Virus record (IMG/VR): IMGVR_UViG_3300032327_001202
Location: 18,828-82,827 of that record
Length of the DNA: 64,000 bases
Source of the DNA: a virus
Lineage: Duplodnaviria; Caudoviricetes
Strand: one strand, 5' to 3'
The stretch's first letter is position 1, and each line of letters opens with the position of its first letter. The position numbers and the translations under genes are program-made. A model generated the notes under the pieces. The model was not told where the DNA came from. It did no database searches and saw only the letters and a program-made list of their open reading frames with translations. Shown here piece after piece: positions 3,771 to 60,155 of the stretch.

Positions 3771-3986
3771 ATGAGTACAATTAATGTAAAAATACAAACA
3801 AATAGAATTATTGGCGGTCTTAGAGATTGTATTAAATTATTTTTACAAGAAACTAAAGAAAAAGTATTAACTTTAGAAGTTTTAAAAAAATATAATTTTG
3901 AAGAAAAAGATTTATATGATATGAATCTAACTAAATCAAAAATAAGAGATTTTAAAATTAATAAAATATTAAAATTATGCCAGTAG
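3771..3986 (+). CDS. Small protein, RDxxI-motif family member 1
   Basis: Likely start ATG 3771 (just after the stop at 3768); C-terminus KKYNFEEKDLYDMNLTKSKIRDFKINKIL shared with the four downstream ORFs. Confidence 0.75.
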   Translation: MSTINVKIQTNRIIGGLRDCIKLFLQETKEKVLTLEVLKKYNFEEKDLYDMNLTKSKIRDFKINKILKLCQ

Positions 3987-4216
3987 TTTCATTAGATTTC
4001 GCAAGTTTATATCCTAGACCAATGGGTGATTTTTCTATGGGAGATGATTTTGATAAATCTACTAAGTATATATTAGATAGAAATAAAGATCATGATTATG
4101 TAGATCTTTTATTACTTGAAAAGTATGGGTTGGTAACAAGTAGTTTATTTGATTTTCCTTTTGTTCAAACAAAGGTAAGAGATTATGAGATAAATAAAAT
4201 ATTAGATAGTATATGA
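3977..4216 (+). CDS. Small protein: PolB motif A-like peptide (VVSLDFASLYP) plus RDxxI C-terminal domain
   Basis: N-terminus MPVVSLDFASLYP matches family-B polymerase DxxSLYP; C-terminus KVRDYEINKIL. Confidence 0.8.
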   Translation: MPVVSLDFASLYPRPMGDFSMGDDFDKSTKYILDRNKDHDYVDLLLLEKYGLVTSSLFDFPFVQTKVRDYEINKILDSI

Positions 4217-4467
4217 GTGATATAATCAGACAAGAACTTAAAAAAGTAATAAATAGTTTTTATGGAAGAAATCCCGATATAGAAACTGATTTTACTAAAT
4301 CTATAAAGTTTTTATTATCTAAATTGGATGTTAAGTTTTTAACATACGAGTTTGTAGAAAAGATAAAAGATAAATATGATATAGTATATACGGATTTGTC
4401 TGATTTTTCATTAGTTCAGATAAAGGTAAGGGATTATGAAATAAATAAAATCTTTAAAAGTATCTAA
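4213..4467 (+). CDS. Small protein: PolB motif B-like peptide (KKVINSFYG) plus RDxxI C-terminal domain
   Basis: QELKKVINSFYG matches family-B KxxxNSxYG; C-terminus KVRDYEINKIF. Confidence 0.75.
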   Translation: MSDIIRQELKKVINSFYGRNPDIETDFTKSIKFLLSKLDVKFLTYEFVEKIKDKYDIVYTDLSDFSLVQIKVRDYEINKIFKSI

Positions 4468-4497: not shown

Positions 4498-4791
4498 ATG
4501 AAAAGTAAAAGTGATTTAAAGATAAAATATGGTGATAACATCATAGACGAAATAGAAAATAAATTAGCAAAAGAAATATCTGATAGTATAAACAAGGATA
4601 TACTTAATAGTTTTAAGAAACCAAGTAAAATTTATCTACTTTCTTTAGTTGAAAATATTAATAATAAAGAAGGTGAGTTATTTATACTAATGGAAAAATA
4701 TGGTATTATAGAAAATGATTTATATAGCCTTGAAATTGTTAAATCAAAAATAAGAGAATATAATATAGATTTAATCTTAAAAAATAATTAA
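4498..4791 (+). CDS. Small protein: major-capsid-like helix plus RExxI C-terminal domain
   Basis: SDLKIKYGDNIIDEIENKLAKEISDSINKDIL aligns ungapped to this window's MCP segment EDIKANTGMDIVQKMESILVNELSQTISKQII; C-terminus KIREYNIDLIL. Confidence 0.75.
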   Translation: MKSKSDLKIKYGDNIIDEIENKLAKEISDSINKDILNSFKKPSKIYLLSLVENINNKEGELFILMEKYGIIENDLYSLEIVKSKIREYNIDLILKNN

Positions 4792-4807: not shown

Positions 4808-5107
4808 TTGTATATTTGTATGGAAGAAAAAAATATAAATTATAAATCTTATATAGAGGAACAAATAAGTAAAAGTATTTCTTATTCTGATTATATATGT
4901 GATGAGTTAGATAAAACTATAGATTATGCTGATTACTTAAGTGATAAACTTGAAAGTGAAGTATTTTTAGTAAAATTACACACTGATATGAATTTATCAG
5001 ATATAATAGAAATGTATGATTTATCAGAAAAAGATCTTCATAAATTGAGTATAGTTAAGTTAAAAGTAAGAGATTATAAAATAAATTTATTACTAAAACA
5101 AGATTAA
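4808..5107 (+). CDS. Small protein: two scaffold-like 14-aa repeats plus RDxxI C-terminal domain
   Basis: KSISYSDYICDELDKTIDYADYLSDKLE vs protease/scaffold KSIKYSEYVAENLDKNIAYAEYIAENLD (14/28 identical by hand); C-terminus KVRDYKINLLL. Confidence 0.8.
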   Translation: MYICMEEKNINYKSYIEEQISKSISYSDYICDELDKTIDYADYLSDKLESEVFLVKLHTDMNLSDIIEMYDLSEKDLHKLSIVKLKVRDYKINLLLKQD

Positions 5108-5136: not shown

Positions 5137-5495
5137 GGGGATGAAATGATTTAGATTCATGGAATTAATGGTAGAGATGCAAACATCGGATAATCCTAAC
5201 CCGATTAATAAATTGGATTAAAGTCTAAACGACAAAACAAATACAGTAGCAAGCCGTGAAGAATTAGTAGCCGCTCTACAAAACAACATCTTAAAGGTAA
5301 ACGAAGTAGCTTTTGCTTAATTGACAAAAACAAAAAGGTTTCCAAATAGTTAAAAATCTATTCAAAAATTTTCGGATTTGTTAGGGGTTCGTTAAAAACT
5401 AAATTAGTTTGTTATTTTATAAAAAAGTAACTACGTTTGTAAATGAGTTTCTATGATTAACCAGAGAAGACCCGAATTCGCCTTCGGCATCTCCA
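5137..5495 (+). ncRNA. ssrA: tmRNA (transfer-messenger RNA)
   Basis: 5' GGGGATG pairs with 3' CATCTCC(A), giving a 7-bp acceptor stem with the G3:U70 alanine determinant; T-arm GAC-CCGAA-TTCGCC-TTCGG; internal tag ORF 5225/5228-5320 ending ...VAFA*; terminator immediately downstream; CCA not encoded (CTA). Confidence 0.92.
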
Positions 5496-5500
5496 CTAAT

Positions 5501-5538: not shown

Positions 5539-5958
5539 ATGAATGATGATAACTTTGATAAATACCTAAAAATTAGTAATTTATCTTTAATAATTAAAAA
5601 AATAGGAGATAGAATAGATTTTATTGATAAAAATAAAATCTATGAAAATATAGATGGGTGTATTCGAGAATCTAATATAGATTTTATATTAGAACAACAA
5701 AAAGATTTTTATTTTCTTGATATAGAATACTTCAGAGGAAGAAACCCATTAAATAATAATTATTATCCTATAAATTATAAATTAATAGAAAGTGATATGA
5801 TTAAAATAAAAAAATTTAATCAATTATCAAAATCTAAAATAATTATTGTAGGAAACATTACTATACAAAAATTATATTATTCCGCAGACTTTATTGTAGA
5901 ATATATTGATTCTAAACCAAAAATTATTAAAAATAGATATTTTCCAATTTATGATTAA
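5539..5958 (+). CDS. Hypothetical protein with internal RExxI motif
   Basis: 139-aa ORF containing IRESNIDFILE; C-terminal SADFIVEY...KIIKNRY weakly recalls the DnaB/gp41 helicase C-terminus. Confidence 0.65.
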   Translation: MNDDNFDKYLKISNLSLIIKKIGDRIDFIDKNKIYENIDGCIRESNIDFILEQQKDFYFLDIEYFRGRNPLNNNYYPINYKLIESDMIKIKKFNQLSKSKIIIVGNITIQKLYYSADFIVEYIDSKPKIIKNRYFPIYD

Positions 5959-6277
5959 AGTAAGTTTAACCGCAAAAGAACAAATAATTAAATTAAAAAG
6001 TGAAGAACCTAATACAGGACAATACCTTAGAGTAGGGGTAAAGGGTGGAGGATGTAGTGGATTATCATACATCTTAGAATTTGATGATATATATGATAAA
6101 AAAATTGATGAACTTTTTGAAGATAATGATATAAAAATTATATGTGATAAAAGAAGTCTTCTTTATATATTTGGAACCGAACTAGTATTTTCAGGTGGTT
6201 TAAATGGTAAAGGATTCGAGTTTATCAATCCCAATGCAAGTAGAACTTGCTCTTGTGGAGAAAGTTTTTCAGTTTAA
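5951..6277 (+). CDS. iscA: HesB/IscA-family Fe-S cluster assembly accessory protein
   Basis: LRVGVKGGGCSGLSY and C-terminal CSCGESF; likely start MIKVS at 5951 rather than 5906. Confidence 0.95.
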   Translation: MIKVSLTAKEQIIKLKSEEPNTGQYLRVGVKGGGCSGLSYILEFDDIYDKKIDELFEDNDIKIICDKRSLLYIFGTELVFSGGLNGKGFEFINPNASRTCSCGESFSV

Positions 6278-6289
6278 AAAAATAATAAT

Positions 6290-6466
6290 ATGAACAAAGA
6301 TAAAATAGATTTATATAATTTTTTAGTAGATAACCCTTACTTTTCTAAGGAATATGTTATGGGAAAGATATTTAATTTTTCTTTTTCTGATATACAATAT
6401 ATCAATAATTTAGAACTAATGGAAAAAAGAAATAAAAAAATAGATGATTTATTAAATGAAGATTAG
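6290..6466 (+). CDS. 58-aa ORF (not in track): portal C-terminal-like peptide plus RNKKIDDLL
   Basis: Manual translation MNKDKIDLYNFLVDNPYFSKEYVMGKIFNFSFSDIQYINNLELMEKRNKKIDDLLNED*; PYFSKEYVMGKIFNFSFSDI aligns with portal PYFHVDFLVDKIMKLTPEEI. Confidence 0.75.
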   Translation: MNKDKIDLYNFLVDNPYFSKEYVMGKIFNFSFSDIQYINNLELMEKRNKKIDDLLNED

Positions 6467-6617
6467 TATTGATGAAATAATAACTTATGATATAGTAGCA
6501 TCTCCAGCACTTGGAAGTGCTAAACTAGTATATGATGAAGAGCTTAAACGAAAGAAAATATTAGAGGATATGGAGAGGAGAAATAAGATTTTAGATGAGT
6601 TATTAAAAGAGGATTAA
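6456..6617 (+). CDS. 53-aa ORF (not in track): prohead-protease-like peptide plus RNKILDELL
   Basis: Manual translation MKISIDEIITYDIVASPALGSAKLVYDEELKRKKILEDMERRNKILDELLKED*; TYDIVASPALGSA vs protease TYDIVADPGFASA (9/13 identical). Confidence 0.8.
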   Translation: MKISIDEIITYDIVASPALGSAKLVYDEELKRKKILEDMERRNKILDELLKED

Positions 6618-8951: not shown

Positions 8952-8984
8952 AAAAAAGAGGACTTATTTAGTCCTCTTTTTTTT
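8952..8984. terminator. Bidirectional terminator
   Basis: AAAAAAGAGGACT-TATTT-AGTCCTCTTTTTT between convergent genes. Confidence 0.75.
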
Positions 8985-9461
8985 ACCTCTTTTATTTATT
9001 GGAGGTGTATAATTTGTTGATGTGGATTGGGTAGATGGCGTAGTGTAAGCATAATCAAAATAAAATAAATTAGGGCTGGAACCTGTTTTATATAATTCAT
9101 GTTCTTCTTCTTTAAATTCCTCAAATTCTTTGTTTTCTAAAATAGAATCTAATTTTCTATCACGATTAATGGTAGCAACTTCTCGTTTAATTCTTTCTTT
9201 TTCCTCCTCTGAATTACCAAAACCTTTCATAGGGTTAACAGTAACTAAATCTATCCCTATTGTTTGAGCGGCTATTTTTTTAGCAATTGGTAATAAACTT
9301 GGAAAAGATTCATTTGACTGTGTCCCTACTAATGTAGTATCCATATTTATTTCATTTTTTAAATGAAGATTAGCATATTCGGTCATCCAGTTATTTACTA
9401 CAGATTGTGTAGATGATACATGATTCAAATCCCATTTATCTATTTTTATATTTGGTTTCAT
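8964..9461 (-). CDS. Truncated paralog of the major capsid N-terminal region with an inserted RDRKLDSIL helix
   Basis: WMTEYANLH vs MCP WMAEYAEYH; LLPIAKKIAAQTIGIDLVTVNP vs LLPVAMKIAAQTIGLDLVAVKP (17/22); LFYFDYAY vs LVYVDFQY after the insert. Confidence 0.85.
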   Translation of the reverse strand: MKPNIKIDKWDLNHVSSTQSVVNNWMTEYANLHLKNEINMDTTLVGTQSNESFPSLLPIAKKIAAQTIGIDLVTVNPMKGFGNSEEEKERIKREVATINRDRKLDSILENKEFEEFKEEEHELYKTGSSPNLFYFDYAYTTPSTQSTSTNYTPPINKRGKKKRTK

Positions 9462-9464
9462 ATT

Positions 9465-10568
9465 TTATATTATTTTTTCTTCTAAAATTATTTCTATATT
9501 TTGTTCATAAGAAATTTTTAATAATTCTTTTTTATTTTCCAAAACCCAATTATCTTTTAATTGGTCATTTCTTTTTACAACCTCAAATTGCTCTTCACCA
9601 CCAAAAAATTCTCTTGGCTCATAATGTTGAATACCATTAAACTCTATAAATAACCCCTTTTTAGGTAAATAAAAATCAAATCTATATGTAGAATTACCTA
9701 TTTTTTGTTTATATTCTTTAATGTATTCTATACCTTTTATATCTAACCAATTCTTTATTTGACGTTCTCCTTTTGATGAAGAACAATTAGGACAACCACA
9801 TTTATGATGTATAATATAATTAGGTTTAGCACTCCAAATATAATCACATACTTTACATTTATGTTTTAAATAAAAAAGAGACCCTATATATTTTTCACCA
9901 TCTACTAATTCTATATCATTTGGAAGAAGAGATAAATATTTTGTATGAGAAAATTTTCTACCAGAACAAGATGAACACCCTAATACTATATTAGCTATAT
10001 TTTTAGGCGTAGTGTTAAATTTCTCACCACATTTTAAACATTCAAAATCATGATTTTCTCTAAAATTAGTGTAATTTCCTATTAATTTTATATTCCTTTC
10101 TATTAATAATTCATTAAATTTATTAATATAGTTATATGATTTTTTGCTTAATAAATTTTTATCCTTTTTACATTCACAAATATATTTTGTGATTTGTTTA
10201 GGTGTTTTATTTATTATTTCATTACATATTTTACATTCAAAATTTATATACGTATTAGTGTTAATATAATTATCTACTCTAATAAAATCTAAATCTTTTA
10301 TTCTTAAATCAAATTCTTCATTTGTTATTTTTCTACCTAATGAAGAAAAACTATCGTTTGTTTCTTTTTTACATTCACATAATGTTCGATTATATAATTT
10401 AGGCTTTTTCATACTTTTTTTACCACATAACTTACATTCAAATTCTATTGGTGTTTCTGCATTAATATAATTACCGATTCTTATATAATCAGAATCTTTA
10501 ATTTTTAAATCAAAATCATTATTAGTAAATGCTTTTGGTCCTGACTTTTCGTTCTTTTTTATATACAT
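9465..10568 (-). mobile_element. Free-standing homing-endonuclease-like gene (CxxC repeats plus C-terminal PD-(D/E)xK/Vsr-like domain)
   Basis: Repeated FECKxC units, GCPNCSSSKGE, RFDFYLP..FIEFNGIQH; directly downstream of the capsid gene. Confidence 0.8.
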
Positions 10569-10667: not shown

Positions 10668-12410
10668 TTAGTTAAGGTAGCCATTAGCATCATTAACGTA
10701 GATAGTCATAAATTGTTTTTGTGGGAAGAAACCTAATTCAGCCACAGCATATCTTGATCTTAAAATCATTCTTGGAGCAAATGTTGCTTCTGACATGATT
10801 GAGATAGATTGTGCCATGAGGAATGGCACGAAACAGATACCTGGTTGATCAGGATTGTTTTTACGTCCGATTAAGATTCTGTTGTCATTGTATTTCATGT
10901 AAGGATCTACGTAGATAGTGATATCACCGATTTGACCTACAGGGTACATTTGACCGTTTGTGTTTAATTTAGATTTAAGTGGGTTAATTGTGTAACCTGC
11001 AACATCCATTAAAGCTGCTGCTAATCCACCATTTGTTACCGCATATTGTGCTGGTCCAACACGTCCTTCAGTTGCGATGTAGTTAGAAGCATGTACCATT
11101 TTAGTGATAAGCTTTCTTTGTACAGCGTGTGTAGTTTCACCACCTGGTCCTGCTTGAACATAAAGAGTATCTAAGTCAAATATAGTTTGTCCAGAGATGT
11201 TAGCGTTAGCATTTAAACCTGTGTATAAAGGAGCAGTTTGTCTGTTTATATTACCCATATCAAATACTTTAGCAATAATTTGCTTAGAGATAGTTTGAGA
11301 AAGTTCGTTTACAAGGATTGATTCCATTTTTTGAACGATATCCATACCAGTGTTAGCTTTGATATCTTCAATTTCTGTTCTACGTAATGCAGAACTTACT
11401 TCTACTGTACCAACTGTAATTGATTTAGAAGAAATTTTTGGTCCAATTGCACCTGCATATGTGCTTTCTTCTTCTTGACGAGCCATTGGGTATTGCCCAC
11501 CATTACCATTAAAGTTTGTAACATATCCTGGTAATTGATCTTCAAGAGCAGATACTAAGCTTATGCTTATAGCATTTGAGTTAGTAGACTGTCCAAATAA
11601 GTAGTTAATTTCTGAAACCATTGAACCACCTGCTGTAGCACCTGTAGTTGAAACGTTAAATGAGTTGTTTGCTTGATTTAAGCCATAAACAACACCACCA
11701 CCATATGCACCACCTGCCGCATTTGATTCTTTGTAAGCTCTGAATATAGGCTGTCCATCAATACGAGAGAAACCTAAGAACTCTAAGTAACCAAATTTGT
11801 TAGTTGGTTCAGTTGTAGTACTAGATACTGAAGTTGATGCAGTGAAACCTGTCCAAATTCTTGTACCAAATGCTAAACCACCTTGGTTTTGTTGAATACC
11901 TGCAGTAGTTAAAGCGCTATTAATAGCTGTATTTAATGAAGCACTTAAACCTGTAGAAGTTAAAGTAGCATTCCAAGCAATTTTGAATACTTGAGGTTTT
12001 GTGTTAAAGTTTGAAAGATTTAAATCGTCATATTGAAAATCAACATAAACTAAATCAATCTTTGGACCTGGAGTTGGCTTTACAGCTACTAAATCAAGAC
12101 CAATTGTTTGTGCAGCAATTTTCATAGCTACTGGTAATAGGTTTTGTCCTAAATCACCTGAACCTATGTTTGATGAACCATAGTTTGCACCAATTGTTGT
12201 ACCTGGGTAAGTACCAACTTGTGGAGCTAAAACAGCACCTAAACCACCTGTAGAAGCATTAAGGTAAGCGTTTTCGTTTATTGCATGGTATTCAGCATAT
12301 TCTGCCATCCATGAATATTTTTCTCTGTCCTCTTTGTTAACACCAATGTTTTCTAAAATTGGAGTCCATTTGTTAAGAGCTTTTTGTAAGTCAATTCTAA
12401 CTTGTGACAT
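10668..12410 (-). CDS. gp23: Major capsid protein (T4 gp23-like)
   Basis: KWTPILE N-terminus, EDIKANTGMDI..E..L..E helix, IYVDPY, F.P.M.L.SRYAV C-terminal motif; adjacent to protease and portal. Confidence 0.9.
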   Translation of the reverse strand: MSQVRIDLQKALNKWTPILENIGVNKEDREKYSWMAEYAEYHAINENAYLNASTGGLGAVLAPQVGTYPGTTIGANYGSSNIGSGDLGQNLLPVAMKIAAQTIGLDLVAVKPTPGPKIDLVYVDFQYDDLNLSNFNTKPQVFKIAWNATLTSTGLSASLNTAINSALTTAGIQQNQGGLAFGTRIWTGFTASTSVSSTTTEPTNKFGYLEFLGFSRIDGQPIFRAYKESNAAGGAYGGGVVYGLNQANNSFNVSTTGATAGGSMVSEINYLFGQSTNSNAISISLVSALEDQLPGYVTNFNGNGGQYPMARQEEESTYAGAIGPKISSKSITVGTVEVSSALRRTEIEDIKANTGMDIVQKMESILVNELSQTISKQIIAKVFDMGNINRQTAPLYTGLNANANISGQTIFDLDTLYVQAGPGGETTHAVQRKLITKMVHASNYIATEGRVGPAQYAVTNGGLAAALMDVAGYTINPLKSKLNTNGQMYPVGQIGDITIYVDPYMKYNDNRILIGRKNNPDQPGICFVPFLMAQSISIMSEATFAPRMILRSRYAVAELGFFPQKQFMTIYVNDANGYLN

Positions 12411-12490: not shown

Positions 12491-14695
12491 TTAAATGTTT
12501 TTGAATCTTTCTAAGATTGATTTGAAATCTGAATCAGATAGTTTATCTTCTTGTATTAAACTGTCATGAGAAATCATTTTTTTAGTTGATTCATTCTTTT
12601 TTAAGTTTCTAGTTAACCAAAAATGTTCAATTTTAGCTTCTGAATCCAATTCAGGATATAGTTTAGCTTGTGAAAGAATTGATTTTTTAGAACTTTCATT
12701 TGTTACTTCCCAAATTGATTTTATATTTTCTGGCATCAATCTGATTAGTCTTTCTTCTAATGATTCATTTTTAATAGAAAGTGCTTCTTGTATTAATTTT
12801 ATAACTTCTGAACTTGTGAAATAACTCTTTTCGTTTATGTAAAGTTTTACTTGTTCTTGCTCTTCGTTTGTTAAGCTATAATAGCTATCAACTTGAGACT
12901 TGTTTAAAAATTTTAAGAAATGTAGATCGTTTGTTTCAGAAACTTTACGTTTTCTAGCTTCTTCGATTAATAAATCTATTTTTTTACTTAAATCTGAATC
13001 TGTATTTTTATTTTCTAAGTAGTCTTCGTCTGCTTTAGATACATCTGGTAAACCTTCTAATTTTACTTCTTTACCTAATAATTCATCTTTGAAATCTGCT
13101 TCATTTGGAACCGCAGTATCAACTTTTTGTTCTTCTGGTAATTCAACTTCTGTTAATTCAGTATAATCTAAAGAAACTGGAGTTGCTTCATCAGCTTCAC
13201 CCGCTTTTTCAACACCATCTTCACCATGAAGTTCATCCTCACCACCTTCTAAATAGTTATCTGATTTATTATCAACATCATTTTCACCAAAACCATATTC
13301 TTCTAAAGTAGGAATAAGATTTGATTCATTACTTTCAAATAATTTAGTACCATTAACTTTTTCAGAAATTAAACCTGTATAAGATACAGCTTTATCTAAG
13401 TTTTCAGCAATGTATTGAGAATAAGAAATGTTATCATCAAGGTGTTCTGCTATATATTCAGAATATTTAATATTACCTTCTAAGTTTTCAGCGATATACT
13501 CAGAATAAGCAATATTACCATCTAAGTTTTCAGCTAAATATTCAGCATAAGAAATATTTCTATCTAAGTTTTCAGCTAAGTATTCTGCATAAGAAATATT
13601 CTTATCAACATTCTCAGCAATATATTCAGAATAAGAAATGTTTTTGTCTAAATTTTCAGCGATGTATTCAGAGTAAGAAATGTTTCTATCTAAATTTTCA
13701 GCGATGTATTCAGAATAAGAAATGTTCTTATCTAAGTTTTCAGCAATATATTCTGCATAAGCGATATTTTTATCTAAGTTTTCAGCAACATATTCAGAAT
13801 ATTTAATTGATTTGTTTAAGTTTTCAACTAAATAATCGTTATGTTCGATTAATCTATCAGTTGTATCTTTAAGAGATTTGTTCTCAGAAACAACAACTTG
13901 AATTTTTTCTGCTAAATAATCTAAGTATTTAACAACTTGAGAATTAGTTTTATTTAATTCTTCATAGTAGTTTAAAAGTTTTTCTAATTTAACTGGTTCT
14001 AAATTACCAGATTTAAGAGCACTTTTAACTTCTTTTTTAGTTGCAGCAATTTCATTAACTATATATTTCGAATAGTCTGACAATTGATCTTTCGTTACGA
14101 ATTCATTTTTGTTCATGTTAAATAATTCATTTATTTTTGATTCATTTGATACTTCATATATTCTGAAGTTAGCATCATTTGAATAATTTAAAGACTCATT
14201 TATAGAAGACATTCTCGCAGAAGCAAATCCCGGATCTGCAACTATATCATAAGTAAATAATTTTTTTAGTGATACTGTACCATCAGCTTCTGTAATACCA
14301 GCAGCTCTTGAAGATACAAATATAGGGCAACCATCATCAACTAAAGCCTTAGCTTCTTTTCCCCAATAGGTATTTAATAATTTAATTTGTCCTTCAACTA
14401 CATTTTTTTCTTTAACATAATATGCGGTTTTGATTAAATGGGATGCACGGGATAGTGAAGTGTCAAAGACGTCGGGGTGGTCAAACTCACCATAAACTAC
14501 TCCCATAGTAGAAATCCTGCTATTAAGTTCTTCTAAACAAGGCAAGAATCTTTCAGGAGTATATACTCTTTCATTCCTATTTTTAACCATAAACTCAGTA
14601 AAAGTACCTCCTAAAAGATAATCTTTTCTAGCATCTACACCTTCGTTCATTTTTAAAGGATTTGTATTATTTTCAATGATTAATACTGGCTTCAT
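12491..14695 (-). CDS. gp21: Prohead protease (gp21-like) fused to a scaffold-like region
   Basis: NRNERVY, YGEFDHP, VSSRAAG, TYDIVADPG protease motifs in the N-terminal ~170 aa; coiled-coil, repeat and acidic C-terminal region. Confidence 0.9.
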   Translation of the reverse strand: MKPVLIIENNTNPLKMNEGVDARKDYLLGGTFTEFMVKNRNERVYTPERFLPCLEELNSRISTMGVVYGEFDHPDVFDTSLSRASHLIKTAYYVKEKNVVEGQIKLLNTYWGKEAKALVDDGCPIFVSSRAAGITEADGTVSLKKLFTYDIVADPGFASARMSSINESLNYSNDANFRIYEVSNESKINELFNMNKNEFVTKDQLSDYSKYIVNEIAATKKEVKSALKSGNLEPVKLEKLLNYYEELNKTNSQVVKYLDYLAEKIQVVVSENKSLKDTTDRLIEHNDYLVENLNKSIKYSEYVAENLDKNIAYAEYIAENLDKNISYSEYIAENLDRNISYSEYIAENLDKNISYSEYIAENVDKNISYAEYLAENLDRNISYAEYLAENLDGNIAYSEYIAENLEGNIKYSEYIAEHLDDNISYSQYIAENLDKAVSYTGLISEKVNGTKLFESNESNLIPTLEEYGFGENDVDNKSDNYLEGGEDELHGEDGVEKAGEADEATPVSLDYTELTEVELPEEQKVDTAVPNEADFKDELLGKEVKLEGLPDVSKADEDYLENKNTDSDLSKKIDLLIEEARKRKVSETNDLHFLKFLNKSQVDSYYSLTNEEQEQVKLYINEKSYFTSSEVIKLIQEALSIKNESLEERLIRLMPENIKSIWEVTNESSKKSILSQAKLYPELDSEAKIEHFWLTRNLKKNESTKKMISHDSLIQEDKLSDSDFKSILERFKNI
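13390..13850 (-). repeat. Coding tandem repeat, about 10-11 copies of 42 bp (14 aa: NISYSEYIAENLDK)
   Basis: Directly visible in the translation and DNA of the protease/scaffold gene. Confidence 0.95.
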
Positions 14696-59792: not shown

Positions 59793-60155
59793 TTAATTTT
59801 TTAAAATTAGGTTTATAGATTCTTCCCTTTGTTTATATATTGTATATTGTTTATAAAGTATTTCAGCAAATAAATATACAGATATATCTGAATAAAAAGG
59901 ATCTTTATCCGTATGTATTATATATTCGCAATTATTCCAATCAATTGATTGGAATAATTGTAAAAAGTAATTCTTTTTATCTTCCATTTTAGAATTAGTA
60001 TAAATTTCTTCAGGCTTTAAGAAATTAGGTACTTTAATAGGATCAAGGTTATAAAAAATTTCTTTATAACCAGCATCATATAAATACCATTCATTATCTT
60101 TTATTATAAAAGCTACTTCACTTTTATTTTTTTTAATAACTTTAAAATGTTCCAT
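59793..60155 (-). CDS. Hypothetical protein ending in an RExxI motif
   Basis: C-terminus QREESINLILKN, like the 3771-5107 family. Confidence 0.7.
   Translation of the reverse strand: MEHFKVIKKNKSEVAFIIKDNEWYLYDAGYKEIFYNLDPIKVPNFLKPEEIYTNSKMEDKKNYFLQLFQSIDWNNCEYIIHTDKDPFYSDISVYLFAEILYKQYTIYKQREESINLILKN

Follow-up and report, generated by a model that had tools for sequence, protein, structure and literature searches.

What is a segment of the major capsid protein (MCP) doing at the N-terminus of a small protein that is encoded apart from the capsid gene? The question is raised by open reading frame (ORF) 4498-4791, with an 11.3 kDa product, P0001, which lies in a viral contig of 82.8 kb. We analysed a window of 64,000 nucleotides of this contig (bases 18828-82827; 24.7% G+C; CheckV completeness 15%), and positions below are those of the window unless a contig position is given (Table 1). 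The contig encodes a gp23-type MCP, P0002, and a search of a phage collection placed LR756502 (62% identity) among its nearest relatives, together with LR745206, LR756504, LR756501/3 and LR756500. These MCPs come from uncultured phages of 460-735 kb, with Lak phages ranking after them, and the window is therefore taken to be a fragment of a huge T4-type phage. A phmmer search of the MCP against PDB sequences gave no match, and because the AlphaFold-type model of the MCP had a pLDDT of 48, only secondary structure was taken from it.

Table 1. Positions of the mini-gene, its array and the capsid-derived features in the window
Feature	Position	Strand	Basis
Mini-gene P0001, 97 aa + stop	4498..4791	(+)	ORF list and translation; ATG at 4498, stop ends 4791
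P0001 residues 5-43, copy of gp23/gp24 short P-domain helix and spine helix	4510..4626	(+)	Profile matches, orthologue conservation
P0001 residues 44-61, variable linker	4627..4680	(+)	Least conserved part of orthologue alignment A3
P0001 residues 62-97, 36-residue C-terminal module	4681..4788	(+)	Alignment A2; common to four flanking paralogues
Tail motif REYNIDLIL	4753..4779	(+)	Fits R-[DENQ]-x-x-[IL]-[DN]-x-[IL]-L
Paralogue 1 of array, source of N-terminal part not identified	3771..3986	(+)	Module alignment and profile
Paralogue 2, N-terminus resembles PolB motif A	3977..4216	(+)	9/17 identities with contig PolB N-fragment residues 409-425, E 0.08
Paralogue 3, N-terminal K-x3-NS-x-YG pattern (PolB motif B type)	4213..4467	(+)	Pattern search; PolB C-terminal part off contig
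Paralogue 5, N-terminus copies 14-residue repeats of scaffold/protease ORF 12491-14695	4808..5107	(+)	BLASTP E 2e-10
MCP gene, P0002, 580 aa	10668..12410	(-)	Pfam Gp23 E 3e-27
MCP residues 348-386, segment copied by mini-protein	11253..11369	(-)	Most conserved window, predicted helices
Second MCP-derived small protein, 165 aa, copies MCP residues 34-115	8964..9461	(-)	BLASTP E 1e-8

An earlier, sequence-only reading of this DNA had aligned the N-terminus of P0001 without gaps to the MCP. The alignment was confirmed, with residues 5-36 pairing with MCP residues 348-379 at 11 of 32 identical positions (BLASTP E 2e-4). Its Smith-Waterman score of 58 was reached by none of 3000 shuffles when the MCP alone was considered, and by 1.5% of them when each shuffle was given its highest score among the 246 ORFs of the contig; one unrelated contig ORF scored 55. 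The MCP was the top contig match for all ten orthologue N-termini (48 residues), at 57-72 against 46-56 for the next best, and an HMM of the N-terminal 47 columns found it at E 5e-4, with the next contig ORF at 0.22. An origin of the N-terminus from the scaffold repeat that is copied by paralogue 5 was ruled out with the same HMM, to which that sibling gave E 0.22, and the scaffold ORF was absent among the matches listed (E up to about 5). When the mini-proteins were compared with a 40-sequence MCP alignment using hhalign, 34-39 columns aligned at E 3e-5 to 6e-5 (probability 66-72%); alignments of 38-39 columns arise because the likeness of the orthologues to the MCP extends past its helix and through the adjoining I-F-E-M stretch.

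Comparison with the gp23 family at profile level, by which that reading was to stand or fall, gave significant matches. Against Pfam, the first family for P0001 was Gp23 (PF07068; 17.4 bits, E 0.003, profile positions 161-196 of 376, under the cut-off of 24.4), as was the capsid family phrog_138 against PHROGs (E 0.0026). Gp23 was also the family matched most frequently, by seven of ten mini-protein family members, one of which, P0134, exceeded the curated cut-off of 24.4 (28.1 bits, E 1.8e-6). The Pfam RFC1 C-terminal domain, matched by four members at E about 1e-3 and under cut-off, was taken as helical noise. A 34-position profile built from the mini-protein helices alone, A7, was searched against 177,635 PDB sequences; the top three matches were T4 gp24 entries (E 3.3e-6; 1yue residues 191-219), with T4 gp23 residues 283-306 (6uzc_a) and coiled coils of the GCN4 type matched weakly. 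The helix is thus one conserved in gp23-like capsids, T4 included, as had been claimed. Both hydrophobic and charged helix positions are conserved between the mini-proteins and gp24, and the mini-helix, judged by these sequence matches, is closer to the general gp23/gp24 consensus, represented by T4 gp24, than to the phage's present MCP. In six-frame scans, A7 also matched the MCP helix of three genomes of 0.46-0.64 Mb: LR756500 (E 6.5e-5), LR756504 (3.1e-4) and LR756502 (0.012). As the matches are replicated at the profile level, we regard the similarity as homology rather than chance. The homology is confined to a segment, the spine-helix region of PF07068: about 40 residues align, and a complete HK97 fold, with A domain, P domain with its sheet, and E-loop, is lacking. 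Since P0001 in addition falls under the Gp23 cut-off, it is not a capsid protein.

The copied segment is the part of the MCP that changes least. Of all 32-residue windows, the one at residues 347-378 is the most conserved among 40 MCPs of 65-93% identity, and the helix is invariant in these 40 relatives; the second most conserved window, residues 84-115, lies inside the part copied by ORF 8964-9461. P0001 had been described as mimicking a different part of the MCP from that ORF, and the two copied parts are indeed separate (MCP 348-386 and 34-115). The low-confidence MCP model has helices at 344-354 and 356-391, the first matching a short helix and the second the long spine helix. Two groups of mutations map to the corresponding stretch in T4: the head-length (ptg) mutations A268V, A275T, D285V and D287V/N flank a short acidic P-domain helix that touches adjacent capsomers through charged groups close to the quasi-threefold axes, and the gp31-bypass changes G292S/V306I/V307I lie in the spine helix (PMC9546572). 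The T4 mutation numbering is tied to the mini-helix through the 6uzc_a 283-306 match. By analogy with T4, the copied segment would be mostly P-domain core, and its two ends would make contacts between capsomers and between subunits. The question of whether the helix is an intersubunit surface is answered in part by this comparison.

We are highly confident that ORF 4498-4791 is a real gene and that its homology to the capsid helix is genuine. Nine orthologues were found, at 64-99% identity, in which residues 1-35 are near-invariant and as conserved as the tail module, while residues 36-62 are variable. The dN/dS ratio was 0.23-0.43 for the entire mini-gene and, by the Nei-Gojobori method, 0.14-0.39 for the helix part (codons 1-40), 0.5-0.64 for the linker and 0.10-0.45 for the module; these ratios rest on small counts and had the same direction in five pairwise comparisons. 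The mini-gene and the MCP segment share 53% codon-aligned nucleotide identity, from which the copy must be old, and by the same figure a recent DNA copy or a decoy DNA site was ruled out. The AlphaFold model of P0001 is all-helical and weak (pLDDT 60); a Foldseek search of the model against the PDB gave no match at E 0.001 or better, and a search of the ESM Atlas gave no usable match. ORF 4498-4791 appears to encode a functional chimeric microprotein, of which residues 5-43 are an ancient, selectively maintained copy of a gp23/gp24 segment.

The remainder of the protein belongs to a family. ORF 4498-4791 is the fourth of five packed, same-strand small ORFs that share the C-terminal module of 36 residues, and a profile of this module (A2) detected exactly five copies on the contig (E 2e-21 to 8e-20; P0001, E 5e-20), as well as one protein of 56-60 aa in each of LR756502 and LR745206. 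P0001 combines a module matching A2 with an R-[DE]-x-x-I-[DN]-x-[IL]-L ending and an N-terminal part drawn from a conserved segment of an essential phage protein, the MCP. Neither ankyrin repeats nor any other Pfam domain were found in any array member by Pfam search. The tail motif, which in P0001 stops three residues short of the C-terminus, occurs 10 times in 95 non-overlapping contig ORFs compared with 0.09 times in shuffles, an enrichment of about 100-fold, and seven times within 12 residues of a C-terminus compared with 0.003. The strict motif is also C-terminal in a 120-aa ORF remote from the array, 59793-60155 (-), and internal in a 139-aa ORF, 5539-5958 (+). A further small ORF, 6456-6617, copies a strand of the prohead protease (E 1.7e-4).

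In near relatives the array has 4-6 members, and the capsid-helix member was kept in all six relatives examined. An extra member, with an N-terminus of the form M-P-x-M-P-L-P-H-Y... and the same tail module, is present at L016:4595-4816 (73 aa) and L022:2973-3173 (66 aa). The L017 array is without member 3, and its member 2 ends like member 3, as if modules had recombined. An exhaustive profile search retrieved more distant family members, P0131-P0134, at 39-56% identity; scans of viral contigs found no locus for P0132 and P0134. When complete LR756502 and LR745206 were scanned with PF07068, an MCP was found in each, together with ORFs of 70 aa and 67 aa that match only Gp23 positions 164-194 and in which the helix is followed directly by an R-x-x-S-I-N-K-I tail. 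The helix-plus-tail mini-gene is thus retained in relatives as distant as 61% MCP identity. LR745206 also contains a 75-aa ORF, L025:1429-1656 (-), that matches only Gp23 positions 302-356, the C-terminal capsid strands. This ORF ends R-K-R-K-I-E-N-I-F and the next small ORF R-K-E-K-I-E-K-I-F, and both are candidate further tagged capsid-fragment genes in this distant relative. Two distant members of the tail-module family, P0135 and P0138, have two copies or a partial duplication of the module, without a recognisable mimic segment.

Several other loci are of note. Directly 3' of the array lies a divergent tmRNA-like gene, 5137-5498 (+), which matches Rfam RF00023 over the full model (1-374) at 22.2 bits (gathering score 47; E 4.7e-7 in a restricted scan) and has an acceptor stem GGGGATG/CATCTCC with a G3:U70 pair; it was missed by ARAGORN and by an Rfam scan at the gathering threshold. 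The idea that the tail motif might be related to the tag of this gene was dropped, as by eye the motif does not fit. Near the mini-gene loci, ORF 5906-6277 (+) encodes an IscA/HesB-type iron-sulphur cluster assembly protein (Pfam Fe-S_biosyn E 3e-14). Between the MCP gene and ORF 8964-9461 sits ORF 9465-10568 (-), whose 367-aa product has repeated C-x-x-C pairs and an endonuclease-like C-terminus, with sub-threshold Pfam matches only, and looks like a free-standing homing endonuclease. Upstream of the window, at G000:C1:10347-12932, PolB seems to be split: a 512-aa N-terminal fragment ending after motif A is followed by a 331-aa ORF resembling a GIY-YIG endonuclease, and no ORF with PolB motif B or C was found on the contig. 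ORF G000:C1:7424-8689 begins with a sequence resembling an intein C-terminus.

As to function, we tentatively favour, at somewhat less than even chances, a role for the ORF 4498-4791 protein as a competitive mimic, or bait, of the capsid segment, a proposal drawn from its sequence. The free helix would occupy whatever normally recognises the segment in the capsid, and the shared tail would tie the whole set of mini-copies to one common, putative reader. In the version that we prefer, some factor of the host or of a rival senses hard-to-mutate segments of essential phage proteins, and the protein would serve as its bait or decoy. The same idea fits the siblings, with their PolB catalytic motifs, scaffold repeats, and protease and capsid N-terminal pieces. 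It is preferred because the PolB catalytic motifs in the set are not assembly surfaces, because the copied pieces are the least mutable windows, and because immune systems are known to be triggered by capsid proteins and by short peptides from them: Gol, 29 residues of T4 gp23, suffices to trigger Lit (PMC3014915), and CapRel is triggered directly by capsid proteins (PMC9712102). Against it, a decoy that resembles a trigger peptide could activate the sensor instead of blocking it. Moreover, the T4 spine helix packs largely on its own P-domain sheet, and is therefore not an obvious external epitope in the folded protein. A wider and more doubtful proposal is that huge phages may carry a clade-wide 'self-mimic' bait system of small tagged proteins that hold the least mutable segments and share a tail reader. 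Such a set would comprise capsid helices, PolB catalytic motifs, and protease, scaffold and portal pieces intercepting factors of the host or of rival phages, with ORF 4498-4791 supplying the bait for the capsid spine helix.

The main rival, which we consider unlikely but worth serious attention, is that the protein regulates or assists folding or assembly of the phage's own capsid, as a microProtein acting on its parent protein. On this view the free helix would have the chaperonin, the MCP itself or the surface of an adjacent capsomer as its target, and by binding there would adjust how a very large shell nucleates or folds, or the angles between its capsomers. Consistent with this, the homologous T4 stretch holds both the head-length (ptg) and the gp31-bypass mutations (PMC9546572), the hydrophobic and charged positions shared with gp24 have been kept, several other tagged mini-genes copy head proteins (scaffold, protease, capsid N-terminus), and the mini-gene is ~6 kb from the head module. 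However, regulation of the capsid leaves unexplained why other members of the array bear PolB catalytic motifs, and the mini-gene is on the opposite strand to the head genes, while the genes that share its operon have no relation to head assembly.

It is also possible, at a low probability, that the protein is cargo, an internal head protein that the tail or the helix targets to the prohead in the manner of the T4 capsid targeting sequence, to be packaged and perhaps injected. Huge phages package many proteins, the tail motif is C-terminal in many small proteins, and paralogue 5, with its scaffold repeats, could enter the core as it assembles. On the other hand, (L/I)-x-E sequences that might be protease sites are expected by chance in a sequence rich in E and I, the PolB-motif siblings do not suit a head address, and packaging gives no reason for cargo to need a capsid helix.

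Less probable still is that the helix is functionless debris, a capsid fragment captured in front of a recombining array, for example through homing-endonuclease breaks. Homing-endonuclease-like genes and ORFs with intein-like starts abound on the contig, its PolB is split, array copy number varies among near relatives with one junction that looks recombinant, and the fragments fall at just the conserved motifs that such elements target. Nevertheless, the conservation data already disfavour debris: conservation of the helix part equals that of the tail module (dN/dS of the helix part 0.14-0.39), the copy is old by its 53% nucleotide identity to the MCP, and helix plus tail persists both at only 61% MCP identity and in members at 39-56% identity. 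Chance likeness, in an AT-rich genome, of a pair of amphipathic helices that are both rich in K, I, N, D and E has practically no probability left. The modest single-sequence signal (p = 0.015 over the contig, another ORF at 55 against 58) and the weak GCN4-type matches might speak for it, but it is refuted by the T4 gp24 match, the Gp23 score of P0134, the MCP-helix matches in three other genomes and the G-x-D turn that precedes the helix in both proteins.

If the bait or competitor reading is true, phages could protect or regulate parts of essential proteins that are unable to mutate, and these hard-to-mutate parts would be the ones read by bacterial immune sensors such as Lit and CapRel. 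Because the copy spans the T4 regions of head-length and chaperonin-bypass mutations, a small copy acting in trans could also be a natural tool for investigating the folding and size determination of very large capsids. Whether bait or regulator, the shared tail points to a putative reader that would handle a sizeable fraction of the clade's small proteins.

Literature searches returned no paper on capsid-helix mini-genes or on a shared tail in phages. Several known systems share parts of the design. With T4-type gp23/gp24 (PF07068, HK97 fold; 1yue, 5vf3, 6uzc, 7vs5), P0001 shares the G-x-D turn and the pattern (S/T)-E-x-A-x-x-I-(N/D)-K-(D/E)-I-L. It has, however, ~40 of their roughly 400-580 residues, fused to an unrelated helical module and tail, and being without A domain, P-domain sheet, E-loop and insertion domain it cannot form a shell subunit. 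Gol, too, is a conserved linear stretch from a capsid protein of the T4 type, and its mere 29 residues are active alone (PMC3014915). Unlike P0001, Gol is part of gp23 with no separate gene, and it triggers a host defence rather than being a known counter-measure. It also lies in the N-terminal quarter of gp23, the region copied by ORF 8964-9461 and not by ORF 4498-4791.

The nearest concept is the eukaryotic microProtein (miP), for which our literature searches found no phage setting. MiPs are under 20 kDa, carry a piece related to a larger protein to which they are evolutionarily related, and engage the partners of that protein (PMC9638782); they are defined as binding the larger protein or its partners in non-productive complexes. 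P0001, too, is under 20 kDa, one piece of it has a larger relative encoded in the same genome, and it would be expected to act through that piece. MiPs contain a whole interaction domain, in contrast to the helix segment and clade-specific tag that make up P0001.

The nearest described design is that of the ankyrin arrays of Bodo saltans virus, in which fragments of essential genes are fused to ankyrin repeats in tandem arrays, and for which the authors propose a decoy role (PMC5871332). There, as in the array described here, same-direction tandem paralogues carry N-terminal fragments taken from conserved regions of essential proteins and share a C-terminal part (Deeg et al. 2018, PMC5871332). 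P0001 thus has the N-terminal essential-gene fragment within a tandem paralogue array, and not the ankyrin body. Bodo saltans virus, unlike the phage encoding P0001, infects a eukaryote, and its array products are large proteins with ankyrin repeats in place of the 36-residue helical module. The fragments it carries are of DNA polymerase and MutS, with no capsid helix reported among them (PMC5871332). The two genomes, on the other hand, have in common their giant size, an AT-rich composition and an abundance of homing endonucleases and inteins.
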